This document shows positions 2-41,243 of a stretch of 64,000 bases of DNA, one piece after another (the stretch's first letter is position 1; each line of letters begins with the position of its first letter). The notes below the pieces were generated by a model. It was not told the DNA's origin. It saw only the letters and a program-made list of their open reading frames with translations, and made no database searches. The position numbers and the translations under genes are program-made. This DNA comes from Eubacteriales bacterium (GTDB taxonomy: Bacteria; Bacillota; Clostridia; Oscillospirales; CAG-272), in NCBI GenBank assembly GCA_045543615.1, contig JAZPXL010000007.1, positions 56,465 to 120,464 on the forward strand, read 5' to 3'.

Positions 2-337
2 CTGTATGTTGCATTTTGGGTTATCCTTGCACTCCTTATGGTGTTTAGTATTGCTGCGCTTATAGTGATTGTGGCCGCAGGAGCTTTGGTGTCGCTGATC
101 GGAATTGTCTACGGTGTTGTCCAAATAGTAACAGGACAAGTGCCGGTGGGTCTGTTCGAGGTTGGACTTGGCGTTGTAGTCGGTTCAGCAGTTATGATAG
201 TCGGCATCCTTGTTTATAATTTTGCAGTTCGTCTCATTCCTTTTGCTATGAAAAAGCTTACATCACTTTTGCCGATCATTTTCAAAAAGGGAAGAGCCGG
301 ATATGAAGCACTGAAAGGAGTAATTGAAAACATATGA
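2..337 (+). CDS. Hydrophobic membrane protein, C-terminal part (frame is open to the left window edge)
   Basis: No stop in this frame between position 2 and the first ATG at 38. The product is almost entirely hydrophobic and its end overlaps the next gene by 4 nt (ATGA). Its position upstream of a DUF4097-like gene resembles DUF1700-type partners (inference). Confidence 0.4.
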   Translation: MYVAFWVILALLMVFSIAALIVIVAAGALVSLIGIVYGVVQIVTGQVPVGLFEVGLGVVVGSAVMIVGILVYNFAVRLIPFAMKKLTSLLPIIFKKGRAGYEALKGVIENI

Positions 338-1386
338 AGCCTACATCAGTAATTTTTTTGATAGTTTCCATACTCCTTGCGTGCGTGGGTATTCTTCTTT
401 GTATGACAGCATCAAATATGGCGACACAACAGGGAATCAGTATTTTCTCACAGGTTGGTGGCGAGGATGACAACTTCGTAACTACCGAAGAGCTTTCAAC
501 TGAAGAGCTTAAGAAGATAGTTGTCAAGGTCAGCGATGTTGATGTAAATGTTTACGGTGGCCAGGAAAGCGCAAGAGTTGAGCTTGTCAACTTCTCAAAC
601 GGTGGTTACAGCTACCAGCTCAACCGTTCGACACTTCAGATCTCCGATAACGCAGGCATCGGTGGTATCATTGATATCGACAATCTCAAAATCAACTTCA
701 ACGGATTCCGTGATTATATCTACTACTTTGAGTACAAGGACAAAGCAAAGTCGGTCAATATCTATCTTACAGACGACACCGACCTTGTAAACTTTGTTAT
801 AACAACATCAGCAGGAGATATCACACTCTCTGATCTCGATATTGACTGTGACTATAAAATAACATCTGCAAACGGTCACATCAGCCTCTCCGAGATTTCG
901 ACCACATCTGCTGTTCAGATCGAATCCACAGAAAGTGCGAATATCGATATTACAGCAGTTGAAGCAAATGAATACAGAATTATGGGCTTTGAGACCTTTA
1001 TGAATATCACCGATAGCACATTTACACGTGCTATGTATATCAACGTTGAGACAGGTGATATCGTTTATGACAGAGTGGAGAGCGATTTTGCTAACCTTGA
1101 TGTAGTTCTTCAGTCTCAGTTAGGCTCAATAACCGTATTTGGTGGACAGTACACAGATGTCTTCTCGGAGCTGAATGCTCCAAAGGATGAAACTCCTACA
1201 ACACCTCCCGAAAGTGATACGGATACTGATACCGACGAGGACGGCGGTGAAACAGGCGAGGATGCATCTGAGGAAACGACTGTCGAGGACGAGGGCGGCG
1301 AAGATGGCGACATCAACGAAACGCTTGTAATTCCCGCAAACACACTTACAATTATTATTGCCGAGGGCAATATTGAGGTAAAATAA
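334..1386 (+). CDS. Membrane-anchored DUF4097-like beta-strand repeat protein with acidic low-complexity C-terminal region
   Basis: N-terminal TM helix. Recurrent G-D/H/N-I-x-hydrophobic repeat units (SAGDITLSDL, ANGHISLSEI, ETGDIVYDRV, AEGNIEVK) typical of DUF4097 putative adhesins. D/E/T-rich stretch TDTDTDEDGGETGEDASEE. Confidence 0.5.
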   Translation: MKPTSVIFLIVSILLACVGILLCMTASNMATQQGISIFSQVGGEDDNFVTTEELSTEELKKIVVKVSDVDVNVYGGQESARVELVNFSNGGYSYQLNRSTLQISDNAGIGGIIDIDNLKINFNGFRDYIYYFEYKDKAKSVNIYLTDDTDLVNFVITTSAGDITLSDLDIDCDYKITSANGHISLSEISTTSAVQIESTESANIDITAVEANEYRIMGFETFMNITDSTFTRAMYINVETGDIVYDRVESDFANLDVVLQSQLGSITVFGGQYTDVFSELNAPKDETPTTPPESDTDTDTDEDGGETGEDASEETTVEDEGGEDGDINETLVIPANTLTIIIAEGNIEVK

Positions 1387-1390
1387 AAGA

Positions 1391-1430
1391 AAACAAACAA
1401 GGCTCTGCAAAAGCAGAGCCTTGTTTGTTT
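1391..1430. terminator. Bidirectional rho-independent terminator (perfect 18-bp stem, AAAA loop)
   Basis: aaacaaacaaggctctgc-aaaa-gcagagccttgtttgttt lies between convergent genes, with A/T runs on both sides. Confidence 0.85.
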
Positions 1431-1437
1431 AGAAAAA

Positions 1438-2532
1438 TTATACGTTGAAACGGAAGAGAGTGATGTCTCCGTCCTTCATGACATAGTCCTTGCCCTCGCT
1501 TCTGACAAGACCTGCCTCCTTTGCGGCAGTCATAGAGCCGAGACGAACAAGGTCATCGAAAGCAACAATTTCAGCACGAATGAATCCACGCTCAAAGTCG
1601 CTGTGAATTTTGCCTGCCGCTCCGGGTGCTTTAGTACCCTTGCGAATTGTCCAGGCACGAACCTCCTTAGGTCCTGCTGTGAGGAAGCTGATGAGTCCGA
1701 GAAGCTCATATCCTGCACGGATAAGTCTGTTGAGTCCTGATTCTTTAAGCCCCATATCCTCGAGGAACATCTGCTTTTCATCGCCCTCAAGCTCAGCAAG
1801 CTCTGCCTCAAGACCACCACAAATTGCAACAATACCGGAGTTCTCTGTTGCAGCAAATTCCTTAAGTGCAAGGTAATAGGGATTGTCAACGGGATCAGGA
1901 TCAATGCTGTCCTCGCCAACGTTGGCAACATAAATAACAGGTTTTGCGCTGAGAAGAGGCATCTCGGCGAGAAGTGCAGCCTCGTCCTCGTTGACGTCAA
2001 GCGCACGGGCAGATTTGCCCTCACCAAGATGAACGAGAAGCCTTTCAAGAAGAGCAACTTCAGCCGCAAGGGATTTGTCTGCTTTCATAGCCTTTCTTGA
2101 ACGATCAAGTCTTCTCTCGGCAATCTCAATATCCGAAAGAATAAGCTCATAGTTGATGGTGTCAACATCGCTGCAAGGATCAACACGTCCGTCAACGTGA
2201 ATGATGTTGTCGTTTTCAAAGCAACGAACAACGTGAAGGATTGCATCACATTCACGAATATGGGAGAGGAATTTGTTGCCAAGTCCTTCACCTTGAGATG
2301 CGCCCTTAACAAGGCCTGCTATATCAAAAAACTCTACTGTTGCAGGGGTGTACTTTTCCGGAGCATACATTTCTGCAAGAGTGTCAAGACGGGAATCGGG
2401 AACGGGAACAACGCCTACATTGGGCTCAATGGTGCAGAAGGGGTAGTTTGCAGATTCTGCGCCACCACCACAGAGTGCGTTGAAGAGTGTACTTTTGCCA
2501 ACATTGGGAAGGCCAACGATACCAAGTTTCAT
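1438..2532 (-). CDS. ychF: Ribosome-binding ATPase YchF (Obg-family)
   Basis: MKLGIVGLPNVGKSTLFNAL P-loop, full-length 364 aa, C-terminal TGS-like end ...DGDITLFRFNV. Confidence 0.93.
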   Translation of the reverse strand: MKLGIVGLPNVGKSTLFNALCGGGAESANYPFCTIEPNVGVVPVPDSRLDTLAEMYAPEKYTPATVEFFDIAGLVKGASQGEGLGNKFLSHIRECDAILHVVRCFENDNIIHVDGRVDPCSDVDTINYELILSDIEIAERRLDRSRKAMKADKSLAAEVALLERLLVHLGEGKSARALDVNEDEAALLAEMPLLSAKPVIYVANVGEDSIDPDPVDNPYYLALKEFAATENSGIVAICGGLEAELAELEGDEKQMFLEDMGLKESGLNRLIRAGYELLGLISFLTAGPKEVRAWTIRKGTKAPGAAGKIHSDFERGFIRAEIVAFDDLVRLGSMTAAKEAGLVRSEGKDYVMKDGDITLFRFNV

Positions 2533-2686
2533 TTTTTCTCCATAAAAAAAGTGTATTTTAGTTTTAATGCCGTATTATTATATAACATTTTTTCTGATTT
2601 TTCAATAGAAACTGAAAAATATACGCAAAAAACGGCGATAATTGTTAACATTTTTTCAAAAACATCTATGCAAAACGAAAAAAGTG

Positions 2687-2695
2687 TGCTATAAT
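2687..2695 (+). promoter_or_regulatory. Extended -10 promoter element TGcTATAAT upstream of the response regulator gene
   Basis: tgctataat lies about 70 nt upstream of the ATG at 2765. There is no good -35. Confidence 0.45.
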
Positions 2696-2764
2696 ATAGT
2701 GGATAGTAAATATTTAGCTGTATATTAGGAGTTATGCAGCGTGATCAATTAAGGAGGAATTACA

Positions 2765-3457
2765 ATGTACACAAAAATACTCGTCGTTGATGACGATAGC
2801 AACATTTGCGATCTTCTGAAGCAGTATCTTGAGAAGGAGGGATACGATGTCCGCACGGCCTCGGATGGATACGAAGCTATTGATACATTTAAAAAGTACG
2901 AGCCCGATCTCGTTTTGCTTGACATAATGCTTCCCGGAAAGAATGGAAAAGATGTTTGCACTGAGCTTCGCAAGTTCACAAACAAGCCCATCATTATGAT
3001 TACAGCAAAGGGCGAGGTAGTTGATAAGGTTGTCTGCCTTGAGCTTGGTGCTGATGACTATGTGGTCAAGCCCTTTGATATGAACGAGCTTTTTGCTCGC
3101 ATCAAGGCTCTTCTTCGCCGTTGCAACTCCCACGATGATTCCGATGATGATGAGGTAATCAGATTTGAGAACATCGAAATCAGCAAGCAGAAGTATGAGC
3201 TGAAGCTCAACGGAAAGAGCGTTGACATTCCTCCTAAGGAGCTTGAGTTGCTTTATTTTCTTGCTTCTAATTACAATCGCGTATTTACCCGCGATCAGCT
3301 TCTTGATAAGGTATGGGGCTTTGATTATCTCGGAGACTCCCGTACTGTTGACGTACATGTTAAGAGACTTCGTGAAAAGCTCGAAGGCGTTTCTGATAAG
3401 TGGATTCTTAAGACTGTCTGGGGAGTTGGCTATAAGTTCGAACTGACAGGCAATTAA
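2765..3457 (+). CDS. OmpR/PhoB-family response regulator
   Basis: Receiver motifs (VVDDD, LLDIMLPGKNG, ITAKG) plus a C-terminal winged-helix (RTVDVHVKRLREKL, WGVGYKF). AAGGAGG RBS. Confidence 0.9.
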   Translation: MYTKILVVDDDSNICDLLKQYLEKEGYDVRTASDGYEAIDTFKKYEPDLVLLDIMLPGKNGKDVCTELRKFTNKPIIMITAKGEVVDKVVCLELGADDYVVKPFDMNELFARIKALLRRCNSHDDSDDDEVIRFENIEISKQKYELKLNGKSVDIPPKELELLYFLASNYNRVFTRDQLLDKVWGFDYLGDSRTVDVHVKRLREKLEGVSDKWILKTVWGVGYKFELTGN

Positions 3458-3467
3458 TAATCGATGT

Positions 3468-3500
3468 ATACGCCACAGCTTTGCTGCGGCGTATGCTTTT
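3468..3500 (+). promoter_or_regulatory. Intercistronic hairpin between response regulator and kinase genes (possible attenuator or processing site)
   Basis: atacgccacag-ctttg-ctgcggcgtat (10/11 bp) followed by gctttt, directly before the kinase RBS. Confidence 0.35.
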
Positions 3501-3517
3501 AGGAAGGAGGAGAATAT

Positions 3518-5011
3518 ATGTTTCGCAGTATTTATGTCAAATATATCGTTACATTTATGGTTATAATAGTAATCAGCCTGGCTCTCCTTCTTGCAATTAT
3601 CGGAACGTTGCTTGGCGACTATTCCGAAACCTCAAAATATGAGGTTGTGGCATCTGCTTCGGACGCACTTGCTGATTATATCGAGTACAAGATACAAAAG
3701 CTTGGTATGAGTGACTTTTCGAGCTTTTGTCATCTGTTTGCCGATGATATAGATTGGCAGATTTCAACCGTCACCGATATATCAGCTTTCCCGATAACTA
3801 TAATGATTGCTGACAGCGATGGTAAGATACTGATCGCAAATCCTGCAGAGGATTGCGACTTTAAGGGCGGTACGCAAATTCCCAGAGCTATTATGGATGA
3901 CCTCAACAATGGAGTTGAGCTTAGTAGCTTTGAAAGCCTTGAGGGTATCTTCGATTCACCACACGTGGTCAGCGCAAAGCCCGTCAATATGAGAAATAAC
4001 TACGTTTGCGGAACGGTTTTTGTGTGTTGCGATAGCTCATCACTCCACTCGTTCTCAAGCCTGCTCATAAAGACAGTTGCTATCTCAAGCCTTTGGGTAA
4101 TGCTCGCTGCGCTTATTGCGATCTTCTTTATAAGCGAAAGAATAATAAGCCCACTCAAAGAGATGAGTATTGCAGCAAAGAGCTTCTCGCAAGGTAAGTT
4201 TGATGTCAGAGTCCCCGTTCTCGGAAATGACGAGGTGGCACAGCTTGCAGCTGCATTTAACAATATGGCGCAGAACCTTGAATCGCTTGACGAGATGAGA
4301 AATAACTTTATGTCGAGCGTATCTCACGATATGCGCACGCCGATGACTACGATTTCAGGCTTTATCGATTGCATCCTTGATGGAGCTATTCCTCCCGAAA
4401 AGCACGAGTATTATCTGAAGATTATTCGTGATGAGGTGCAGAGACTTTCAAGACTCGTTGCAACACTTCTTGATATTTCAAGAATTCAGGCAGGAGACAG
4501 AAAGTTTGTAATGGCACCGTTTGATATTTGCGAAATGGGACGCCAGGTGCTTATTTCCTTTGAGCAGAAGATAGACAAGAAAAAGCTTGAGGTCGAATTT
4601 ATTGTCGATGATGACAATATGTTTGTAGTAGGTGACCACGATGCAATATATCAGATTTATTATAATATCACAGACAACGCAGTAAAATTTGCCCGTGAGG
4701 GCGGCCTACTCAGACTCTCGATGACAACTGAAGACAAAAAGGTCAAAGTCTCTGTATATAACGAGGGAGACGGAATACCTTATGAGGATCAGCCATATAT
4801 CTTCGAGAGATTTTACAAGAGTGACAGAAGCCGTGGAAAAGATAAAACAGGCGTTGGTCTTGGAATGTTTATAACCAAGACGATAATTGAAGCACACGGC
4901 GAAACCATTACGCTTAAGAGTGAACCGGGAAGGGATTGTGAGTTCTGCTTCACATTACCACGCACGACAGATCCCAAAAAGTCTGCTCCCACGCGTGAAC
5001 AAAGAGATTAA
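3518..5011 (+). CDS. Sensor histidine kinase (2 TM, extracytoplasmic domain, HAMP, HisKA, HATPase_c)
   Basis: H-box SHDMRTPMT, N-box DNAVKFA, G-boxes DGIPYE / GVGLGM. Two hydrophobic segments flank a roughly 150-aa loop. Confidence 0.88.
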   Translation: MFRSIYVKYIVTFMVIIVISLALLLAIIGTLLGDYSETSKYEVVASASDALADYIEYKIQKLGMSDFSSFCHLFADDIDWQISTVTDISAFPITIMIADSDGKILIANPAEDCDFKGGTQIPRAIMDDLNNGVELSSFESLEGIFDSPHVVSAKPVNMRNNYVCGTVFVCCDSSSLHSFSSLLIKTVAISSLWVMLAALIAIFFISERIISPLKEMSIAAKSFSQGKFDVRVPVLGNDEVAQLAAAFNNMAQNLESLDEMRNNFMSSVSHDMRTPMTTISGFIDCILDGAIPPEKHEYYLKIIRDEVQRLSRLVATLLDISRIQAGDRKFVMAPFDICEMGRQVLISFEQKIDKKKLEVEFIVDDDNMFVVGDHDAIYQIYYNITDNAVKFAREGGLLRLSMTTEDKKVKVSVYNEGDGIPYEDQPYIFERFYKSDRSRGKDKTGVGLGMFITKTIIEAHGETITLKSEPGRDCEFCFTLPRTTDPKKSAPTREQRD

Positions 5012-8130: not shown

Positions 8131-9153
8131 TTAATTGTTGTCATCATCGACGTTTCCGATGTTCGACAGAGGATTTTTCGACATAGCTGCTTCGATATCG
8201 CTGTTTGAAACGTGGGTGTAAATCTGCGTAGTGTTGAGTTGCTCGTGACCAAGAATTTCCTGAAGGATGCGAACATCAACGCCACCCTTCTGATACATAA
8301 GGGTTGCAGCTGTGTGCCTTAGCTTGTGGACGGAAAAGCCACGGTTTCCAAGTCCTGATTCCTCAAGATACTTTTCGACTGTCCATTGAACAGTTCTGTT
8401 GTTGATTCTGAGTCCTCTGTTCGATAGGAAGAGAGCCGTTGTGTCAGCAGTTCCAAGCTTTTCGTCGTTACGGATGGGCAAATACTCTGCAAGAGCGTTT
8501 CGGCAAGCATCGTTCAGGTAGATTATTCGCTCCTTGTTGCCCTTACCAAGCACACGCAGGGAGCGCAGGTATTTGTCAATATCTCCAAGGTTGATCCCAA
8601 CAAGCTCCGACAGACGCATTCCACAGTTCAGAAAAAGAGTCATCATACAATAATTGCGTATGCGCATCTTCTCGGGAACACTTCTGTCTGCTCTCACGGT
8701 GTTTAGAAACAGAGTGGCTTCTTCAAGAGACATATGCCTTGGAAGAGACTTTTTCTTTTTTGGCGTTTCCACATTTGCAGAGGGATCATTTTCAAGAAGC
8801 ATCTTCGTTGCCGTGTAATATTTGAAAAATCCTTTTATAGCTGAGAGCTTTCTCGCTCTTGCGGCAGCGGCATTTTTTAGCTCACGCTCGCAGAAGAAAA
8901 GAAACTCGTATATATCTGAGGTCGAAACCGAACGCAGAAATTCAGCGTCAACGCAAGTAAGCGATATTTTTTCAAAATCCTCACTTGATGGATCAATGCT
9001 GTTTCTGTCAGCAATTATGAATCTAAAAAAGGTTCTCAGGTCGAGCATATATTCATCAACTGTCTTGGGCGAGCATCCCTTGATCGCAAGCTTGTATGAT
9101 GCGAAGTCACGAAGTAGTAGAGAATATTCACGAGGATTATATTCGGTTGACAT
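8131..9153 (-). CDS. Tyrosine recombinase, XerC/XerD-like
   Basis: SAM-like N-terminal domain plus catalytic HKLRHTAAT (HxxR) and GHEQLNTTQIYTH (Tyr). GGAGG RBS. Confidence 0.8.
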   Translation of the reverse strand: MSTEYNPREYSLLLRDFASYKLAIKGCSPKTVDEYMLDLRTFFRFIIADRNSIDPSSEDFEKISLTCVDAEFLRSVSTSDIYEFLFFCERELKNAAAARARKLSAIKGFFKYYTATKMLLENDPSANVETPKKKKSLPRHMSLEEATLFLNTVRADRSVPEKMRIRNYCMMTLFLNCGMRLSELVGINLGDIDKYLRSLRVLGKGNKERIIYLNDACRNALAEYLPIRNDEKLGTADTTALFLSNRGLRINNRTVQWTVEKYLEESGLGNRGFSVHKLRHTAATLMYQKGGVDVRILQEILGHEQLNTTQIYTHVSNSDIEAAMSKNPLSNIGNVDDDNN

Positions 9154-37007: not shown

Positions 37008-37792
37008 TGGCAAGAGATCCTAATTTACACGCTGGTCATCGTCAGCGATTGAAGAATAAATTCCTGAATTACGGACTTGACAGCTTTTCGCCTCACGAGG
37101 TGCTTGAGCTTGCGCTCTTTTATGCAATCCCAAGACGTGACACAAACGAACTTGCTCATATCCTTATTGAAAGGTTTGGCTCGTTTCGTGGAGTGCTTGA
37201 TGCCGAATACGATGAGCTTGTTGAGGTTGAGGGTGTAGGAGAAAATGCAGCTCTGTTTATTACATTCTTCCGTGAAATATTCCGTTTTTATCGTGCATCA
37301 AGAAATGATGCTGAGTATGTTTATGATACCATAGAAAAGCTTGGTAGCTACGCTGTCAACCTTTACACAGGTATGCAGAACGAAAAATGTTATGCGCTTT
37401 TGTTTGACAATAATATGAAGCTCTTGACAACAGTTCTTGTCAGTGAGGGCTCGGTTTCAAGCACAAATGTAAATATTCCGTTTATTATTGAAAAGATAAT
37501 GAAAAAGAAAGCAACAACAGTAGTTCTTGTCCATAATCATCCCTCCGGAAGACCTTTCCCATCCCAAGCAGACGATGCAATCACATCCGATGTCCAGACT
37601 GCGCTTAGCATTTGTGGGTGTACGCTGCTCGAGCATATCATAGTTGGTGGCGAATATTTCTACCCAATGCTTCGTTCAAGAGCAAAATCAGGCTTGCCGA
37701 TGACTCATCCTACACTCAGCTATAAATCTTTCTATGGTGATGTTCAGGGCGGTGCTATGCTTGCAGAGCCTTTGCCAACAATTGACGACTGA
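37007..37792 (+). CDS. radC: RadC-like JAB-domain protein
   Basis: HhH-like N-terminus and JAMM motif VLVHNHPSGRPFPSQAD. Start overlaps the guaB stop (TAATG). Confidence 0.8.
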   Translation: MARDPNLHAGHRQRLKNKFLNYGLDSFSPHEVLELALFYAIPRRDTNELAHILIERFGSFRGVLDAEYDELVEVEGVGENAALFITFFREIFRFYRASRNDAEYVYDTIEKLGSYAVNLYTGMQNEKCYALLFDNNMKLLTTVLVSEGSVSSTNVNIPFIIEKIMKKKATTVVLVHNHPSGRPFPSQADDAITSDVQTALSICGCTLLEHIIVGGEYFYPMLRSRAKSGLPMTHPTLSYKSFYGDVQGGAMLAEPLPTIDD

Positions 37793-37794
37793 TT

Positions 37795-38391
37795 ATGATC
37801 TGTCTTTATTGCGAAGACCCCGCGCTTCGTGCTGAATATCATCATTTTTATCGGGGCTGTGGCTTGATAGTCGAGTCAGTTCCATCAGGTGAGTTTATCA
37901 AGCGTTCGCATTCTGCGCAAACTGATGCTCTGCTTATAATTGGACAGTATCCAATAGGTATGACCTCGTTTCTGAGCCATCGTGTACCACTGTTTTTTGT
38001 CGGACGGCAAAAGTCACGGGAAAACAATTCATTCGATACTTTTGATTCACCACAGCTTCTTTCCTTGCTAAAACAGCATTCTTCCGACGAAGAGGCGATT
38101 AATCATCGTTCTTTGTTGTATATATCAACATCGGGAAAGGCGTATTATCTCGGTTACAAGCTAAAGCTTACGAAAACTGAGGCGTCAATACTTTATTATC
38201 TTACAAGTAATTTTGGCAAGGATGTGGAGATAGATAAGCTTCTTTCGGTTTGTATTGGTGACGCTCACCGTAAACCATCAAATATCGCTCGCCATATCTC
38301 AAATATCAATCGCAAAGCAAGAGAGATTGGAGAGAGGAATATTATTGTGTCCATAAAGCCAAAAACTTATCGTCTTTGCGAATATATCTAA
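37795..38391 (+). CDS. Orphan winged-helix (OmpR/PhoB trans_reg_C-like) DNA-binding protein with degenerate N-terminal domain
   Basis: C-terminal LTKTEASILYYL...EIDKLLSVCIG...ARHISNINRKA...IVSIKPKTYRL follows the OmpR-type wHTH pattern. The N-terminal ~100 aa lacks the receiver acidic pocket. Confidence 0.5.
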   Translation: MICLYCEDPALRAEYHHFYRGCGLIVESVPSGEFIKRSHSAQTDALLIIGQYPIGMTSFLSHRVPLFFVGRQKSRENNSFDTFDSPQLLSLLKQHSSDEEAINHRSLLYISTSGKAYYLGYKLKLTKTEASILYYLTSNFGKDVEIDKLLSVCIGDAHRKPSNIARHISNINRKAREIGERNIIVSIKPKTYRLCEYI

Positions 38392-38430
38392 AAAAGGAAA
38401 CGCTTTGAGCTCCTTCTCATAAGGAAGTTT
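38392..38430 (+). repeat. Left arm of a ~40-nt imperfect inverted repeat
   Basis: AAAAGGAAACGC...TCTCATAAGGAAGTTT. The reverse complement recurs at 39111-39152 (12/12 and 16/16 nt blocks around an 11-nt mismatch). Confidence 0.75.
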
Positions 38431-38433
38431 ACC

Positions 38434-38502
38434 GTAGGGGCGACCCTTGGTCGCTCGCAAACAACCGCAAAACCAAAACGGGCGACCAATGGTCGCCCCT
38501 AC
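38434..38502. repeat. Pair of inverted GC-rich palindromic units (REP-like): GTAGGGGCGACC-nnnn-GGTCGC... / ...GGCGACC-AAT-GGTCGCCCCTAC
   Basis: Unit 1 (38434-38458) and the reverse complement of unit 2 (38479-38502) match at 22/24 nt. Each unit is itself a hairpin. Confidence 0.7.
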
Positions 38503-38512
38503 AAACAAATTC

Positions 38513-38538
38513 CGGCAGAGATATTGTTTTCTCTGCCG
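38513..38538 (+). terminator. Hairpin CGGCAGAG-N10-CTCTGCCG (possible terminator of the upstream gene)
   Basis: Perfect 8-bp stem followed by ATTTGTGTT, a poor T tract. Confidence 0.4.
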
Positions 38539-38552
38539 ATTTGTGTTATAAT
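38524..38552 (+). promoter_or_regulatory. Candidate promoter TTGTTT-17-TGtTATAAT
   Basis: Extended -10 at 38544-38552. Would give a ~145-nt structured leader before the ORF at 38698. Confidence 0.45.
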
Positions 38553-38564
38553 AGGGTTACATCT

Positions 38565-38624
38565 TAGGGCGGGAGCAAGCCCCTGCCCTACAAAAATAAG
38601 GGGTATGGGCTTTGCCCTACACCT
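38565..38624. repeat. Two further degenerate palindromes ending in CCCTAC
   Basis: TAGGGCGGGAG-CAAG-CCCCTGCCCTA (9/11 bp), and GTATGGGC-TT-TGCCCTAC sharing the GTAGGG/CCCTAC termini. Confidence 0.5.
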
Positions 38625-38697
38625 GTAATACAAAGGCGAAAATGGCGCGATAAAACCTGTTTGTTGATGGTAATTTTATAGTAAAGGAGAATCTATT

Positions 38698-39048
38698 GTG
38701 TATTTAGGATTTTTAATTATTGCTTTGATATTCTTTTTCACTATCAAAGGCATTATACAAAGCATTAAATCAAAAAGAACGTTTGATTTGTTAGTATGGT
38801 TGCTGTTTATCCCATTCCAATTTTTCTTCTTTATAACCCTTTTATTTGGGGGAAGCGCATTCAATGATGCAGAAACTGAGTATGAATTATATCAAGCGGG
38901 TCATTATTATTTAGAATCCCACGGACAATGGACAGAGGTTTCGCATGGAAAGTACGTTGTCGCTTTTGTTTCCGAAATTGTGGGGATTTCAACCTTTATA
39001 ATTGCTTTTGTTATGAATTTGATTCGCGTCTTATCAAAAAAAGAATAA
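38698..39048 (+). CDS. Small (116 aa) three-TM membrane protein, AT-rich gene, unknown function
   Basis: GTG start 7 nt after AAAGGAGA. Three hydrophobic segments. Composition is visibly more AT-rich than neighbours (by eye). Confidence 0.45.
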   Translation: MYLGFLIIALIFFFTIKGIIQSIKSKRTFDLLVWLLFIPFQFFFFITLLFGGSAFNDAETEYELYQAGHYYLESHGQWTEVSHGKYVVAFVSEIVGISTFIIAFVMNLIRVLSKKE

Positions 39049-39049
39049 T

Positions 39050-39082
39050 ATAAACGCCGACAAAGAATCTGTCGGCGTTTAT
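39050..39082. terminator. Bidirectional rho-independent terminator
   Basis: ataaacgccgaca-aagaatc-tgtcggcgtttat is a perfect 13-bp stem. Confidence 0.8.
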
Positions 39083-39110
39083 ATTTGTTTACAGCAAAGC
39101 AAATACAATC

Positions 39111-39152
39111 AAACTTCCTTATGAGAACCACCCATTTGCGTTTCCTTTTTTT
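39111..39152 (-). repeat. Right arm of the ~40-nt imperfect inverted repeat
   Basis: AAACTTCCTTATGAGA...GCGTTTCCTTTTTTT is the reverse complement of the 38392-38430 blocks. Confidence 0.75.
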
Positions 39153-39153
39153 A

Positions 39154-39843
39154 TTAAAGAGTACTTATTTCTGTAACAGTTAAAACGCCTGAAGAAACCT
39201 TGAAAGAAATCTTATAGTGGGAAAACTCAAAGGTGTAAATTCTGCCGGGATCACTTTGATATCCGGGGCGTGGGTCTTGCTCAAGAATTTTTGTTATTGT
39301 ATTTATTTCGGACTCTGGAATTTCGCTCATAACTCCGTCAGTAAATACAACTTGCATAGATGCTTTGTCGGGCGCAAGAGCAAATCCACCACTTGCCTCT
39401 GCGTGAGAGTCTGTGTACGGCAGATAGGGCTTGATATCATATATCGGAGTGTTATCAAGCAAATCTGCACCACAAACAGTAAGTATAGGACCTCTTGGTG
39501 TATCAAGCTCGTAACCAATGAGTCGAACCGATGAGAGCCCGATGGGGTTTGGCCTGAAAGGTGACCGAGTGGCAAAAACGCCGACACGTTTGTTTCCACC
39601 GAGCTTGGGTGGTCTTACCGTAGGCGTCCATTCATCACGGACGGACTCGGAAAACTCCCACAGAAGCCAAAGATGAGAAAACTCCTCAATTCCTCTAAGC
39701 GCATCGGGATTTCGGTATTCAGGTTCAAAAACAATAGCTCCGACGATCGATTCAATTATACCACTTTGCCTTGGAATTCCAAACTTTGATTTGAAATCAC
39801 AGTGCAAGCGAGCTATTCGTTTCAGCTTTATTCCGTCGCTCAT
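39154..39843 (-). CDS. trmO: tRNA (t6A37-N6)-methyltransferase TrmO (TsaA/YaeB family)
   Basis: FGIPRQSG, RPNPIGLS and KPYLPY motifs, 229 aa. Overlaps radA by 4 nt. Confidence 0.78.
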   Translation of the reverse strand: MSDGIKLKRIARLHCDFKSKFGIPRQSGIIESIVGAIVFEPEYRNPDALRGIEEFSHLWLLWEFSESVRDEWTPTVRPPKLGGNKRVGVFATRSPFRPNPIGLSSVRLIGYELDTPRGPILTVCGADLLDNTPIYDIKPYLPYTDSHAEASGGFALAPDKASMQVVFTDGVMSEIPESEINTITKILEQDPRPGYQSDPGRIYTFEFSHYKISFKVSSGVLTVTEISTL

Positions 39844-41243
39844 TCAATCTCGCTCCCTTGCTTTTTGCTATCGGAGAGGAATGATAGTATCTCATAAACA
39901 CTCTTGATGGGTATGAGGCGAATTTTACAGTCTATGGGGCGTTTTTCGATATTTCGGTAGGGAACGATGACTCTGGAAAAACCGAGCCTCTCGGCTTCTT
40001 TTACGCGAGTCTCAAGATTAGAGACAGCTCTGCATTCTCCTGCAAGACCAATCTCACCGATAGCAAGAATATCCTCAGGGATTATCTTGTCCGTAATTGA
40101 TGAAATCAGAGCAAGTGCAGCTGATACATCGGATGCAGGTTCATCAAGTCTCATGCCACCAATGACGTTCATATAAATATCGTTTGCAGAGAATTTAAGA
40201 CCAAGTCTCTTTTCAAGAACTGCGAGAATAAGACAAATTCGGTTGTAGTCCATGCCGTTAATTGTACGCCTTGGAGATGGGAAACTTGTTGGTGAAACGA
40301 GTGCTTGTACCTCAGCGATCAGAGGACGAGTTCCCTCAACTGTGCAAACTGCGCAGTTACCGGAAACCTTTTTCGGTCTTCCTGCAAGGAGAACCTCGGA
40401 GGGATTGGGGACTTCGCAAAGTCCTCTGTCAGTCATCTCGAATACTCCGATTTCATTGGTCGAACCGTAACGGTTCTTAACAGCACGAATAATTCTGTAT
40501 GCCTGCTGATGCTCGCCCTCAAAGCAGAGAACTGCATCCACCATATGTTCAAGCAACTTAGGACCTGCAATAGAGCCCTCCTTGTTCACGTGACCAACGA
40601 GAATTACAGAAATTCCTTCGTTCTTTGCTTTTGCAATGAACGAGAGTGCTGTCTCCCTGACTTGCGAAACGCTTCCGGGGGAGGAAGCTGCAGTTGGCGA
40701 GTACATAGTTTGTATTGAGTCAACAATGAGAACGTCCGGAGAGATACTGTCGCATTCTTTTAAAATCTTGTCAATATTGGTTTCAGTCATAACAAGAAGT
40801 CCTGCGCTCCTAACTCCAAGCCTCGTTGCACGAAGCTTCAGCTGTCCACCGGATTCCTCTCCTGAAATATATAGAACCTTTCTGTTGTCTCCGAGAATGC
40901 CACTTATTTGCATTAAAAGTGTGGATTTCCCAATTCCGGGCTCGCCTGTAAGCAAAACAACAGAGCCTTTTACAAGTCCACCACCAAGAACACGGTCAAG
41001 TTCGCCCAGTCCCGTTAGTGAACGGATGCAACTGTCAGCCTGAAGCTCAGTAATCGGAACAACACCGCTGTCTCCGCCAACGCTGAACTGATGCTTGTTT
41101 TCTGCACCCTTTACAGCAGGAGAGGTATCAACAACATCCTCAACAAAAGAGTTCCAAGCTCCGCATTTTGGGCATTTGCCCATCCACTTGGGACTTTCGT
41201 ATTCGCAGGATGAGCATATATAAATTGTTTTCAAGCCTTTCAT
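39840..41243 (-). CDS. radA: DNA repair protein RadA/Sms
   Basis: N-terminal CxxC...CxxC zinc finger, Walker A GEPGIGKST, KNRYG motif, Lon-like C-terminal domain. Confidence 0.93.
   Translation of the reverse strand: MKGLKTIYICSSCEYESPKWMGKCPKCGAWNSFVEDVVDTSPAVKGAENKHQFSVGGDSGVVPITELQADSCIRSLTGLGELDRVLGGGLVKGSVVLLTGEPGIGKSTLLMQISGILGDNRKVLYISGEESGGQLKLRATRLGVRSAGLLVMTETNIDKILKECDSISPDVLIVDSIQTMYSPTAASSPGSVSQVRETALSFIAKAKNEGISVILVGHVNKEGSIAGPKLLEHMVDAVLCFEGEHQQAYRIIRAVKNRYGSTNEIGVFEMTDRGLCEVPNPSEVLLAGRPKKVSGNCAVCTVEGTRPLIAEVQALVSPTSFPSPRRTINGMDYNRICLILAVLEKRLGLKFSANDIYMNVIGGMRLDEPASDVSAALALISSITDKIIPEDILAIGEIGLAGECRAVSNLETRVKEAERLGFSRVIVPYRNIEKRPIDCKIRLIPIKSVYEILSFLSDSKKQGSEIE

Follow-up and report, generated by a model that had tools for sequence, protein, structure and literature searches.

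A 64,000-nt stretch of DNA from a Eubacteriales bacterium (contig JAZPXL010000007.1; hereafter the window) contains an inserted element of 0.73 kb between two convergent genes. The element occupies positions 38407–39134, and its ends are 24-nt inverted repeats, each composed of 7 degenerate and 17 conserved nucleotides (TTCTCATAAGGAAGTTT). It is very probably a mobile cassette inserted in the loop of a terminator hairpin. Searches of other genomes showed that it belongs to a family found in Clostridia of ruminant guts and some human guts, with about 100 copies at the least; the copies are located in terminator loops and carry varied single genes behind the same promoter/leader module. These results show that a non-autonomous element with inverted ends entered the apices of terminator hairpins many times independently. 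The full explanation that we favour, a non-autonomous terminator-loop cassette moved by a recombinase acting in trans, is considered likely.

Boundaries of the cassette and the empty site

According to a repeat search of the window, the inverted arms are located at 38390–38430 and 39111–39151; they are 41 nt long and 80% complementary, with a spacing of 680 nt. The arms match exactly over the outer AAAAAAGGAAACGC and over the inner TCTCATAAGGAAGTTT, and these two blocks are separated by 11 nt without a match. This is the arrangement, with 12/12 and 16/16 matching nucleotides around a non-matching middle, that the first-pass annotation of this DNA had described. Within the 64 kb, the exact inner 16-mer has two sites, both at the arms and inverted to each other, and the exact outer 12-mer has no site besides the two arms. 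A domain search identified the flanking genes as those of a Trans_reg_C winged helix-turn-helix (wHTH) protein and TrmO. The left arm begins within the stop codon (38389–38391) of the 198-aa wHTH protein, and the right arm ends 2 nt short of the stop codon of trmO on the opposite strand. The wHTH protein (37795–38391) has no receiver domain.

Each arm of about 40 nt consists of three layers, namely 14 outer nucleotides that form half of a host terminator (an A-run and GGAAACGC), a TT dinucleotide, and the inner 24-nt element end. The left host half (38390–38403) comprises an A-run at 38390–38395, overlapping the wHTH stop codon, and the stem GGAAACGC at 38396–38403. It is followed on the plus strand by a loop remnant (T38404), the left TT copy (38405–38406) and the promoter-side element end (38407–38430), in which the degenerate GC-rich GAGCTCC precedes the 17-nt repeat. 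The terminator-side element end (39111–39134, minus strand) comprises the 17-nt repeat at 39111–39127 and the degenerate CCACCCA at 39128–39134. Next to it are, on the plus strand, the right TT copy (39135–39136) and a loop remnant (T39137), and then the right host half (39138–39152), with the stem GCGTTTCC at 39138–39145 and a T-run at 39146–39152. The trmO stop codon is at 39154–39156 on the minus strand. According to the position table of the family and the reconstructed empty sites described below, the two TT copies may represent a duplicated target or crossover dinucleotide.

The terminal repeats of the element match at 17 of 17 positions and continue into the 7-nt degenerate extension. 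The non-matching 11 nt of the arms are accordingly composed of the loop T, the TT, the 7-nt degenerate end and the T that opens the conserved 17-mer. The first-pass annotation had read the arms as one interrupted terminator hairpin. This holds for the outer 14 nt, which are the host terminator, but not for the inner 16 nt, which belong to the element's own repeat together with 1 nt and the 7 degenerate nucleotides. Since 39 complete copies found elsewhere have this architecture too, it is not due to chance. An exact search of genome contigs with the whole 39-nt arm gave no match, because the outer part is locus-specific.

The wHTH protein has one relative only (75% identity) among 5.8 billion clustered proteins. 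The contig of this relative (L230), from a related species, shows the same gene order, IMPDH, RadC, wHTH, TrmO and RadA. Between the stop codons of wHTH and trmO, L230 contains solely AAAAAACAAGGAAACGC-ATCT-GCGTTTCCTTGTTTTTT, a single hairpin with a 4-nt loop and the same GGAAACGC stem. This hairpin is a bidirectional terminator with a folding energy of −23.8 kcal/mol, and it is the kind of syntenic empty site for which a search had been suggested. L230 and the window align with 81% nucleotide identity over 2.8 kb. The homology breaks off precisely at the final base of the left stem (38403) and is picked up again within trmO. These results indicate that the outer arms of the window derive from a single ancestral terminator stem, one half each, and the earlier idea of a duplicated terminator arm is not supported. 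According to this alignment, 38404–39137 takes the place of a 4-nt loop. The restored site of the window, AAAAAAGGAAACGC-TTTT-GCGTTTCCTTTTTT, is the same as the natural site of L230 apart from the loop. The TrmO relatives among genome contigs showed at most 62% identity and were too distant for intergenic comparison. The empty-site pattern in metagenome contigs gave 22 unrelated terminators sharing the stem, and none was syntenic.

A family of cassettes and their junctions

Gut metagenome contigs from 12 runs (contigs only), in which the species of the window is present at ~3× depth, were aligned to the region. The depth was ~100–3000× at 38404–38650, 9–20× over the open reading frame (ORF; a 98%-identical variant) and ~0–4× over the flanking genes. 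The high depth of the interior indicates that its modules are repeated elsewhere. In species-representative genome contigs (596 Gb), a 25-mer of the leader was found in 9 stretches, and the 17-mer TTCTCATAAGGAAGTTT in at least 120. About 100 of the 17-mer matches are, according to the record titles, in metagenome-assembled genomes of Clostridia, Eubacteriales or Oscillospiraceae from the guts of sheep, goat, cattle, yak and deer; the other matches are those expected by chance in 596 Gb. Complete inverted pairs numbered 39, with sizes of 0.5–1.4 kb plus one 96-bp mini copy without cargo. The first-pass annotation had proposed a search for further copies of the arm, and among its explanations were a hairpin-targeted insertion and a non-autonomous cargo element resembling a MITE (a miniature transposable element with inverted repeats). 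Both the empty site of L230 and the ~100 family copies of the inner arm at other loci support these two explanations.

Cargo was found in 37 cassettes, one credible gene in each (two in the composite L112). The kinds of cargo include GNAT, NUDIX, Peptidase_S51, SF0329, DUF3795, DUF3784, a 4Fe-4S (Fer4) membrane protein and DUF559, and many cargo proteins have no family. The flanking genes are unrelated across loci, with the exception of one orthologous pair (L082/L157). The cargo gene of the window itself was also found in the cassettes of at least five other loci, between different outer stems. Metagenome and metatranscriptome contigs with this cargo are identical to the window as far as 39136, and then continue into other stems and T-runs.

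The junctions were tabulated by position for the 36 of 39 complete cassettes that could be oriented by the cargo gene. The 17-nt block at the ends is nearly invariant. The 7 nt outside it are GC-rich and degenerate, with the consensus R-S-G-C-T-S-S from the outer end to the 17-mer. On the promoter side, T is found at positions −9 and −8 in 36/36 and 35/36 cassettes, respectively, and on the terminator side AA is found on the opposite strand. The TT is thus on the cargo-sense strand at both junctions; 31 of the 36 cassettes show it at both, and none shows AA/AA. The end type is coupled to the cargo orientation in 35 cassettes. Outside the TT, 0–3 loop nucleotides are followed by an inverted stem specific to the locus, which is accompanied by an A-run at one junction and by a T-run at the other. 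The flanking stems have at least 7 matching positions in 29/36.

When the left flank, one copy of the dinucleotide and the right flank were joined, a terminator hairpin with the dinucleotide in its apical loop was restored in 35/36 cases. The loop of the restored hairpins is 4 nt in 19 and 3–5 nt in 30 of the 36, and the median folding energy is −18.6 kcal/mol. If no TT copy is kept, the arithmetic from these loops leaves 1–3 nt, which is too small for most hairpins. Thus, a duplicated or shared dinucleotide is favoured.

Several other copies show how the cassettes vary. L198:3983–4078 is the 96-bp mini copy, in which two ends surround one doublet of repetitive extragenic palindromic (REP) type. 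One metagenome contig fuses 38433 to 39110, so that the inner sides of the left and right ends nearly touch. L171:621–1118 (498 bp) has end types that depart from the usual asymmetry and no credible ORF. In L090:6380–7334 and L114:7033–7858, the arms, from the stem through the dinucleotide to the 7-mer, form inverted repeats of 40 nt without a mismatch, with TT on one side and AA on the other; they look as if they had been homogenized against each other. L140 and L151 have both 7-mers in common and different genes. L239, L240 and L241/L242 contain more distant homologues of the window's cargo (59–84% identity) that keep promoter, leader or terminator modules without recognisable 17-mer ends, and L241/L242 retain one degenerate end. 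These features suggest that they are older, decayed insertions.

BLAST searches of plasmids and phages with the cassette and with a predicted circular joint gave no real match save a solo end remnant in MT839602, and the 17-mer gave chance matches only in viral contigs. The remnant (L243; ‘Bacteriophage sp.’ from human faeces, 2760–2830) is a solo promoter-side end consisting of a stem, TT and TACGCTCC, with 16/17 nt matching, and it directly abuts a degenerate copy of the other stem half. It may be a deletion remnant, and it shows that the family is present in human-gut samples too. Full-text literature searches gave no published description of the family, of the end sequence or of terminator-loop cassettes in general.

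Interior modules and the cargo gene

The interior features reported by the first-pass annotation (GC-rich palindromes, an extended −10, an ORF for a 116-aa protein of three transmembrane helices with its ribosome-binding site (RBS), and a perfect terminator) are all present. The ORF is AT-rich as stated, with a windowed GC content of 30–38% against 44–49% in the flanking genes. The order of the modules is a REP-like doublet, a terminator with an extended −10 promoter, a leader, one membrane-protein gene and a bidirectional terminator.

The first module (38431–38503) consists of two GC-rich, REP-like palindromes in inverted orientation, with GTAG/CTAC heads; this doublet is similar to a REPIN and was found by the inverted-repeat search (−46 kcal/mol, z −8.7). 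Its depth in gut metagenomes is 60–560×, against ~3× for the flanking genes. Palindromes of this kind at 38431–38503, 38566–38591 and 38603–38621 are confined to the cassette within the window. The GTAGGG/CCCTAC heads of the doublet at 38431–38503 are the sole clustered ones of the window, and three lone matches elsewhere look like chance. No gene for a REP-associated tyrosine transposase (RAYT) was found in the 64 kb. Four related loci (L195, L117, L160 and L127) contain RAYT-like genes (NF047646, E 5e-16, which is under the cut-off of this family), and in L117 the gene is 37 nt from a cassette end.

The second module (38512–38552, plus strand) consists of a hairpin at 38513–38538 followed by ATTTGTGTT, with a −35-like TTGTTT at 38524–38529 and the extended −10 TGTTATAAT at 38544–38552. 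It is terminator-like on both strands, with a folding energy of −20 kcal/mol. In gut metagenomes and metatranscriptomes, the contig depth of this module reaches 500–3700× amid many different flanking sequences. When 38 cassettes were scanned for shared modules, a nearly identical copy (AATTTCGGCAGAGA..TTGTTTTCTCTGCCGATTTGTGTTATAAT) was found in 28 regardless of the cargo. The module also lies upstream of the RAYT-like genes of L127 and L160. In these bacteria, the 40-nt hairpin with its extended −10 acts like a portable unit of terminator and promoter.

The 5′ leader (38553–38697, plus strand) contains a REP-like hairpin at 38566–38591, a leader box at 38599–38654 and the RBS AAAGGAG at 38683–38689. 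The leader box of the window reads GGGGTATGGGCTTTGCCC...TGTAATACAAAGGCGAAA.TGGCG.GATAAA. A box of ~55 nt (AGGGGTATGGGCTTTGCCC..TGCCTTTGTAATACAAAGGCGAAACTGGCGATAAA) is present in 37 of the 38 scanned cassettes, with unrelated cargo, 40–100 nt upstream of the start codon (e.g. L083, reverse complement of 3380–3440). It contains a GGGC/GCCC hairpin and the perfect palindrome GCCTTTGT-AAT-ACAAAGGC. As a structured RNA, its helices are almost invariant, with two compensatory cells only. The leader box has no Rfam match, and an Rfam scan of 37500–40000 at a permissive threshold gave sub-threshold matches to terminator-like parts only. The leader box could be a cis-regulatory RNA or an operator. A second repeated element, a long inverted repeat of ~150 nt that starts with AAAAGCCTCCCTCCGAGAGGGAGGTGGCAC... 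and ends with ...GCTCCCTCCCGGAGGGAGCC, is found in many cassette leaders. It sits between the promoter and the leader box in L082:794, L090, L108, L114, L125, L134, L140, L177, L180 and others, and it is missing from the copy in the window.

The cargo gene (38698–39048, plus strand, GTG start) is preceded by the RBS described above and encodes a protein of 116 residues with three transmembrane helices and a small β-hairpin. It is the sole credible ORF of the cassette. Its homologues fall into 41 clusters with the invariant motif GGSAFNDA..EYELYQAGHYYL, and its AlphaFold model has a pLDDT of 84. The protein gave no match in Pfam, NCBIfam or PADLOC, and the structure search gave no match in the PDB. 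Exact-protein look-ups of three proteins of the window returned no record. Contigs from four metatranscriptome runs cover a 98%-identical variant of the gene, with DNA carry-over as a possible source.

The cassette ends with its own bidirectional intrinsic terminator (39047–39085; −23.7 kcal/mol, z −7.5), which was detected by both the inverted-repeat and the terminator searches. Units of a hairpin and a T-run are thus directed leftward at 38480–38498 and 38512–38539, rightward at 38513–38538, and both ways at 39047–39085, and the promoter is placed directly after a terminator hairpin. With this arrangement, the cassette looks insulated from read-through and self-expressed, and it may be regarded as a self-contained expression unit. 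The insertion splits the terminator of wHTH and trmO, and the internal hairpins would stand in for it; the flanking genes are therefore probably little disturbed.

Proposed mechanism of insertion and comparison with known systems

The target was very probably the apical loop, 4 nt in size, of the bidirectional intrinsic terminator common to the convergent wHTH and trmO genes, and the insertion has pushed apart the stem halves with their A- and T-runs. The following mechanism is proposed. A site-specific recombinase would act in trans, most likely a multi-targeting large serine recombinase (LSR) of the TnpX/DUF4368 kind. The cassette would pass through a circular form, in which the right end, TT and the left end make up a palindromic joint of 24+2+24 bp. 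The predicted joint is ...AAACTTCCTTATGAGAA-7 nt-TT-7 nt-TTCTCATAAGGAAGTTT..., with one TT. It would recombine with a look-alike host site composed of an A-run, ~8–9 bp of GC-rich sequence, TT, ~8–9 bp of GC-rich sequence and a T-run. A crossover at the TT would leave TT at each junction and would set the orientation of the cassette relative to the loop strand.

In serine recombination, the crossover dinucleotide is common to donor and target and is found at both junctions afterwards, and this dinucleotide alone dictates the polarity of integration. The size of 24+2+24 bp is usual for an attP site of this enzyme family. The 2-nt repeat of the cassettes is non-palindromic and keeps the same strand relative to the element, and for this reason a serine recombinase is tentatively assigned to the step, as a possible rather than a probable enzyme. 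The half-sites of host and element both have W at position 1 and are GC-rich at positions 2–8; at positions 10–14 the host half-sites have T at 73–95%, compared with TTCTCAT at positions 8–14 of the element. Host half-sites thus resemble element half-sites, and bidirectional terminators would be natural pseudo-sites. For one clade of multi-targeting LSRs, a TT core between A/T-rich flanks has been reported (bioRxiv 10.1101/2021.11.05.467528).

Several observations weigh against this mechanism. No recombinase or transposase is encoded in the cassette, as the first-pass annotation had also stated, and a scan for serine-recombinase motifs, which covered the window and ~1 Mb of related loci, was empty. 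Neither a recombinase nor any other neighbour gene recurs beside the cassettes. No circular joint, back-to-back ends or tandem-cassette junction was found in genome assemblies or cassette loci, and no read-level sign of present-day excision was seen in the runs, which were available as contigs only and hold the species at only ~3×. Three cassettes read TT/AA or TA/TA, two of them being L090 and L114. The sole natural empty site (L230) has the loop ATCT without TT, and thus the TT duplication at this locus is deduced from the family and not seen directly. Moreover, the window 7-mer at 39128–39134 was compared with those of L082/L157, L084, L114 and L179. The 7 nt beside the TT vary (CCACCCA, GTCCGCT, GCCCGCT and CCAGCCT) among cassettes with 94–97%-identical cargo, which a simple TT crossover fails to explain. 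Judging from these sequences, ends and cargo appear to have been reshuffled relative to each other.

Other enzymes and histories were weighed against the same data. An unseen DDE transposase could act in trans on the 24-bp inverted repeats of a mobile insertion cassette (MIC) or a cargo-bearing MITE, and the TT would then be a target-site duplication of 2 bp produced by staggered cutting of the loop. The terminal inverted repeats, the passenger genes, the many copies, the lack of an inner transposase and the short direct repeat at the junctions all agree with this explanation. The cassette fits the published definition of a mic element, that is, inverted-repeat brackets around one or more passenger genes with no transposase (PMC3913671), and there are insertion sequences (IS) whose targets are REP-hairpin loops (PMC1525189). 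However, a non-palindromic dinucleotide on the cargo-sense strand, with AA/AA in 0/36, is unexpected from a symmetric transpososome, and no IS with these ends was found in 8-kb neighbourhoods of the at least 120 loci or in viral contigs, plasmids and phages. In addition, the outermost 7 nt are the least conserved part of the cassette ends. The tips of a DDE transposon are usually its most conserved part. We therefore regard a DDE transposase as unlikely. A tyrosine recombinase, Xer-like or Tn916-like, could also exchange cassettes at the 17-mer, as in the dif modules of Acinetobacter plasmids or in transposition with coupling sequences. Within the 17-mer there is a small palindrome, CTTC-TCATAAG-GAAG, which grows to 10-7-10 in ends of the ‘GCCCAAC’ type, and the 7 nucleotides outside the 17-mer vary between copies as the coupling sequences of Tn916 do. 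A XerC/D-like gene also adjoins the cassette of L083, and another is present in the window at 8131–9153 (minus strand; 51% identical to that of L083 and probably housekeeping). But inverted sites would invert, yet the end type is tied to the cargo orientation in 35/36; the direct repeat is 2 nt and not 6–8 nt; and the ends, judged by eye against the dif consensus, do not fit the 11-6-11 layout of Xer sites (28 bp, XerC-spacer-XerD). Xer genes are housekeeping genes, and none recurs beside the cassettes. This enzyme is considered quite improbable.

Two explanations concern the history of the locus rather than the enzyme, and both are very improbable. In one, the cassette is ancestral at the site and L230 lost it by precise deletion between the arms. 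The empty site is a single contig from a different species with 75–81% identity, and long inverted repeats can promote deletions. Against this loss, the same cassette lies between different terminator stems at unrelated loci, its GC content and REP-type palindromes are foreign to the 64-kb window, and the deletion must have restored a perfect terminator with a 4-nt loop. In the other, the cassette is a phase-variable invertible element with the inverted repeats as invertase sites, as a promoter-bearing segment of ~0.7 kb between inverted repeats might suggest. Flipping would change nothing, however, because the promoter, gene and terminator are all internal. The asymmetric end types also keep a constant relation to the cargo orientation, and no strand-switch joints were found in the metagenome and metatranscriptome contigs (contigs only). 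Three similarities of the ends were considered and rejected. An attC-like reading of GCCCAAC...GTTGGGC is too short and confined to one end type, a dif-like reading of ACTTCCT has a 4-nt register problem, and the ends are inverted and not the direct hairpins of the IS200/IS605 type.

The favoured terminator-loop cassette with a trans-acting recombinase was compared with known mobile systems. MIC231 of Bacillus cereus, the qnrD/qnrS2 mic elements and cargo-bearing MITEs likewise have inverted repeats, one or more passenger genes without a transposase, several copies and a presumed mobilization in trans. In contrast to them, the present family has no known cognate IS, its insertion is confined to the apical loops of terminator hairpins, its junction dinucleotide is coupled to the strand, and every copy has a standard terminator-promoter-leader module ahead of a varying single gene. 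Tn4451/Tn4453 and related clostridial LSR elements (TnpX, TndX), together with the multi-targeting LSR clade with DUF4368, also have a 2-bp direct repeat at both junctions and ends that can form a palindromic joint (PMC3158075), and they share joint-like target sites and Clostridia as hosts. However, they encode their own recombinase and are several to tens of kilobases long, whereas the cassette of 0.7 kb encodes none and no circular form was observed. IS that target REP hairpins (IS1397, ISKpn1, ISPpu9/10 and others) are similarly flanked by the two halves of an extragenic palindrome (PMC1525189), but they are autonomous and use one repeated host REP sequence, whereas the stems here are ordinary, locus-specific terminators.

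Integron cassettes are also small single-gene units with diverse, mostly uncharacterised cargo (GNATs, small membrane proteins) that is shared across genomes. They are promoterless, end in attC and are arrayed by intI, a tyrosine integrase; the present cassettes have their own promoter and inverted ends, are scattered singly and show no back-to-back junctions. The REP/REPIN and RAYT system shares the GC-rich palindromes with GTAG/CTAC heads in inverted doublets and the RAYT-like genes in related loci, but the palindromes here are passengers or decorations inside the cassette and not its boundaries. Thus, the family resembles mobile insertion cassettes and cargo MITEs most closely by definition, the REP-hairpin IS by target choice, and the clostridial serine-recombinase elements by junction chemistry. 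The cassette does not fit integron cassettes, invertible promoters, dif modules or Rfam families. There is a moderate chance that the family represents a distinct cassette-mobility system.

A broader and rather doubtful idea is that gut Clostridia possess a ‘scattered integron’, in which one multi-targeting serine recombinase acting in trans shuttles hundreds of standardized single-gene cassettes. Each cassette would carry the same terminator-promoter-leader module and form the same 50-bp palindromic joint, and the loops of bidirectional terminators would serve as harmless landing pads throughout the chromosome. Such gene-cassette mobility would be distinct from integrons, MICs and dif modules.

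If the proposed explanation is true, single accessory genes would be traded at almost no cost to the recipient, since the cassette settles within a terminator loop, supplies both neighbours with substitute terminators and has its own promoter. The family would be large and easily recognised by the 17-mer, the TT and the split hairpin in the poorly known Clostridia of the rumen and gut, and dozens of uncharacterised cargo genes would be open to function mining. The common promoter/leader module is a candidate for a portable expression or regulation signal in these organisms. The enzyme would be of interest to builders of DNA-integration tools if it is a multi-targeting serine recombinase whose donor site is compact (50 bp) and whose class of targets is predictable.

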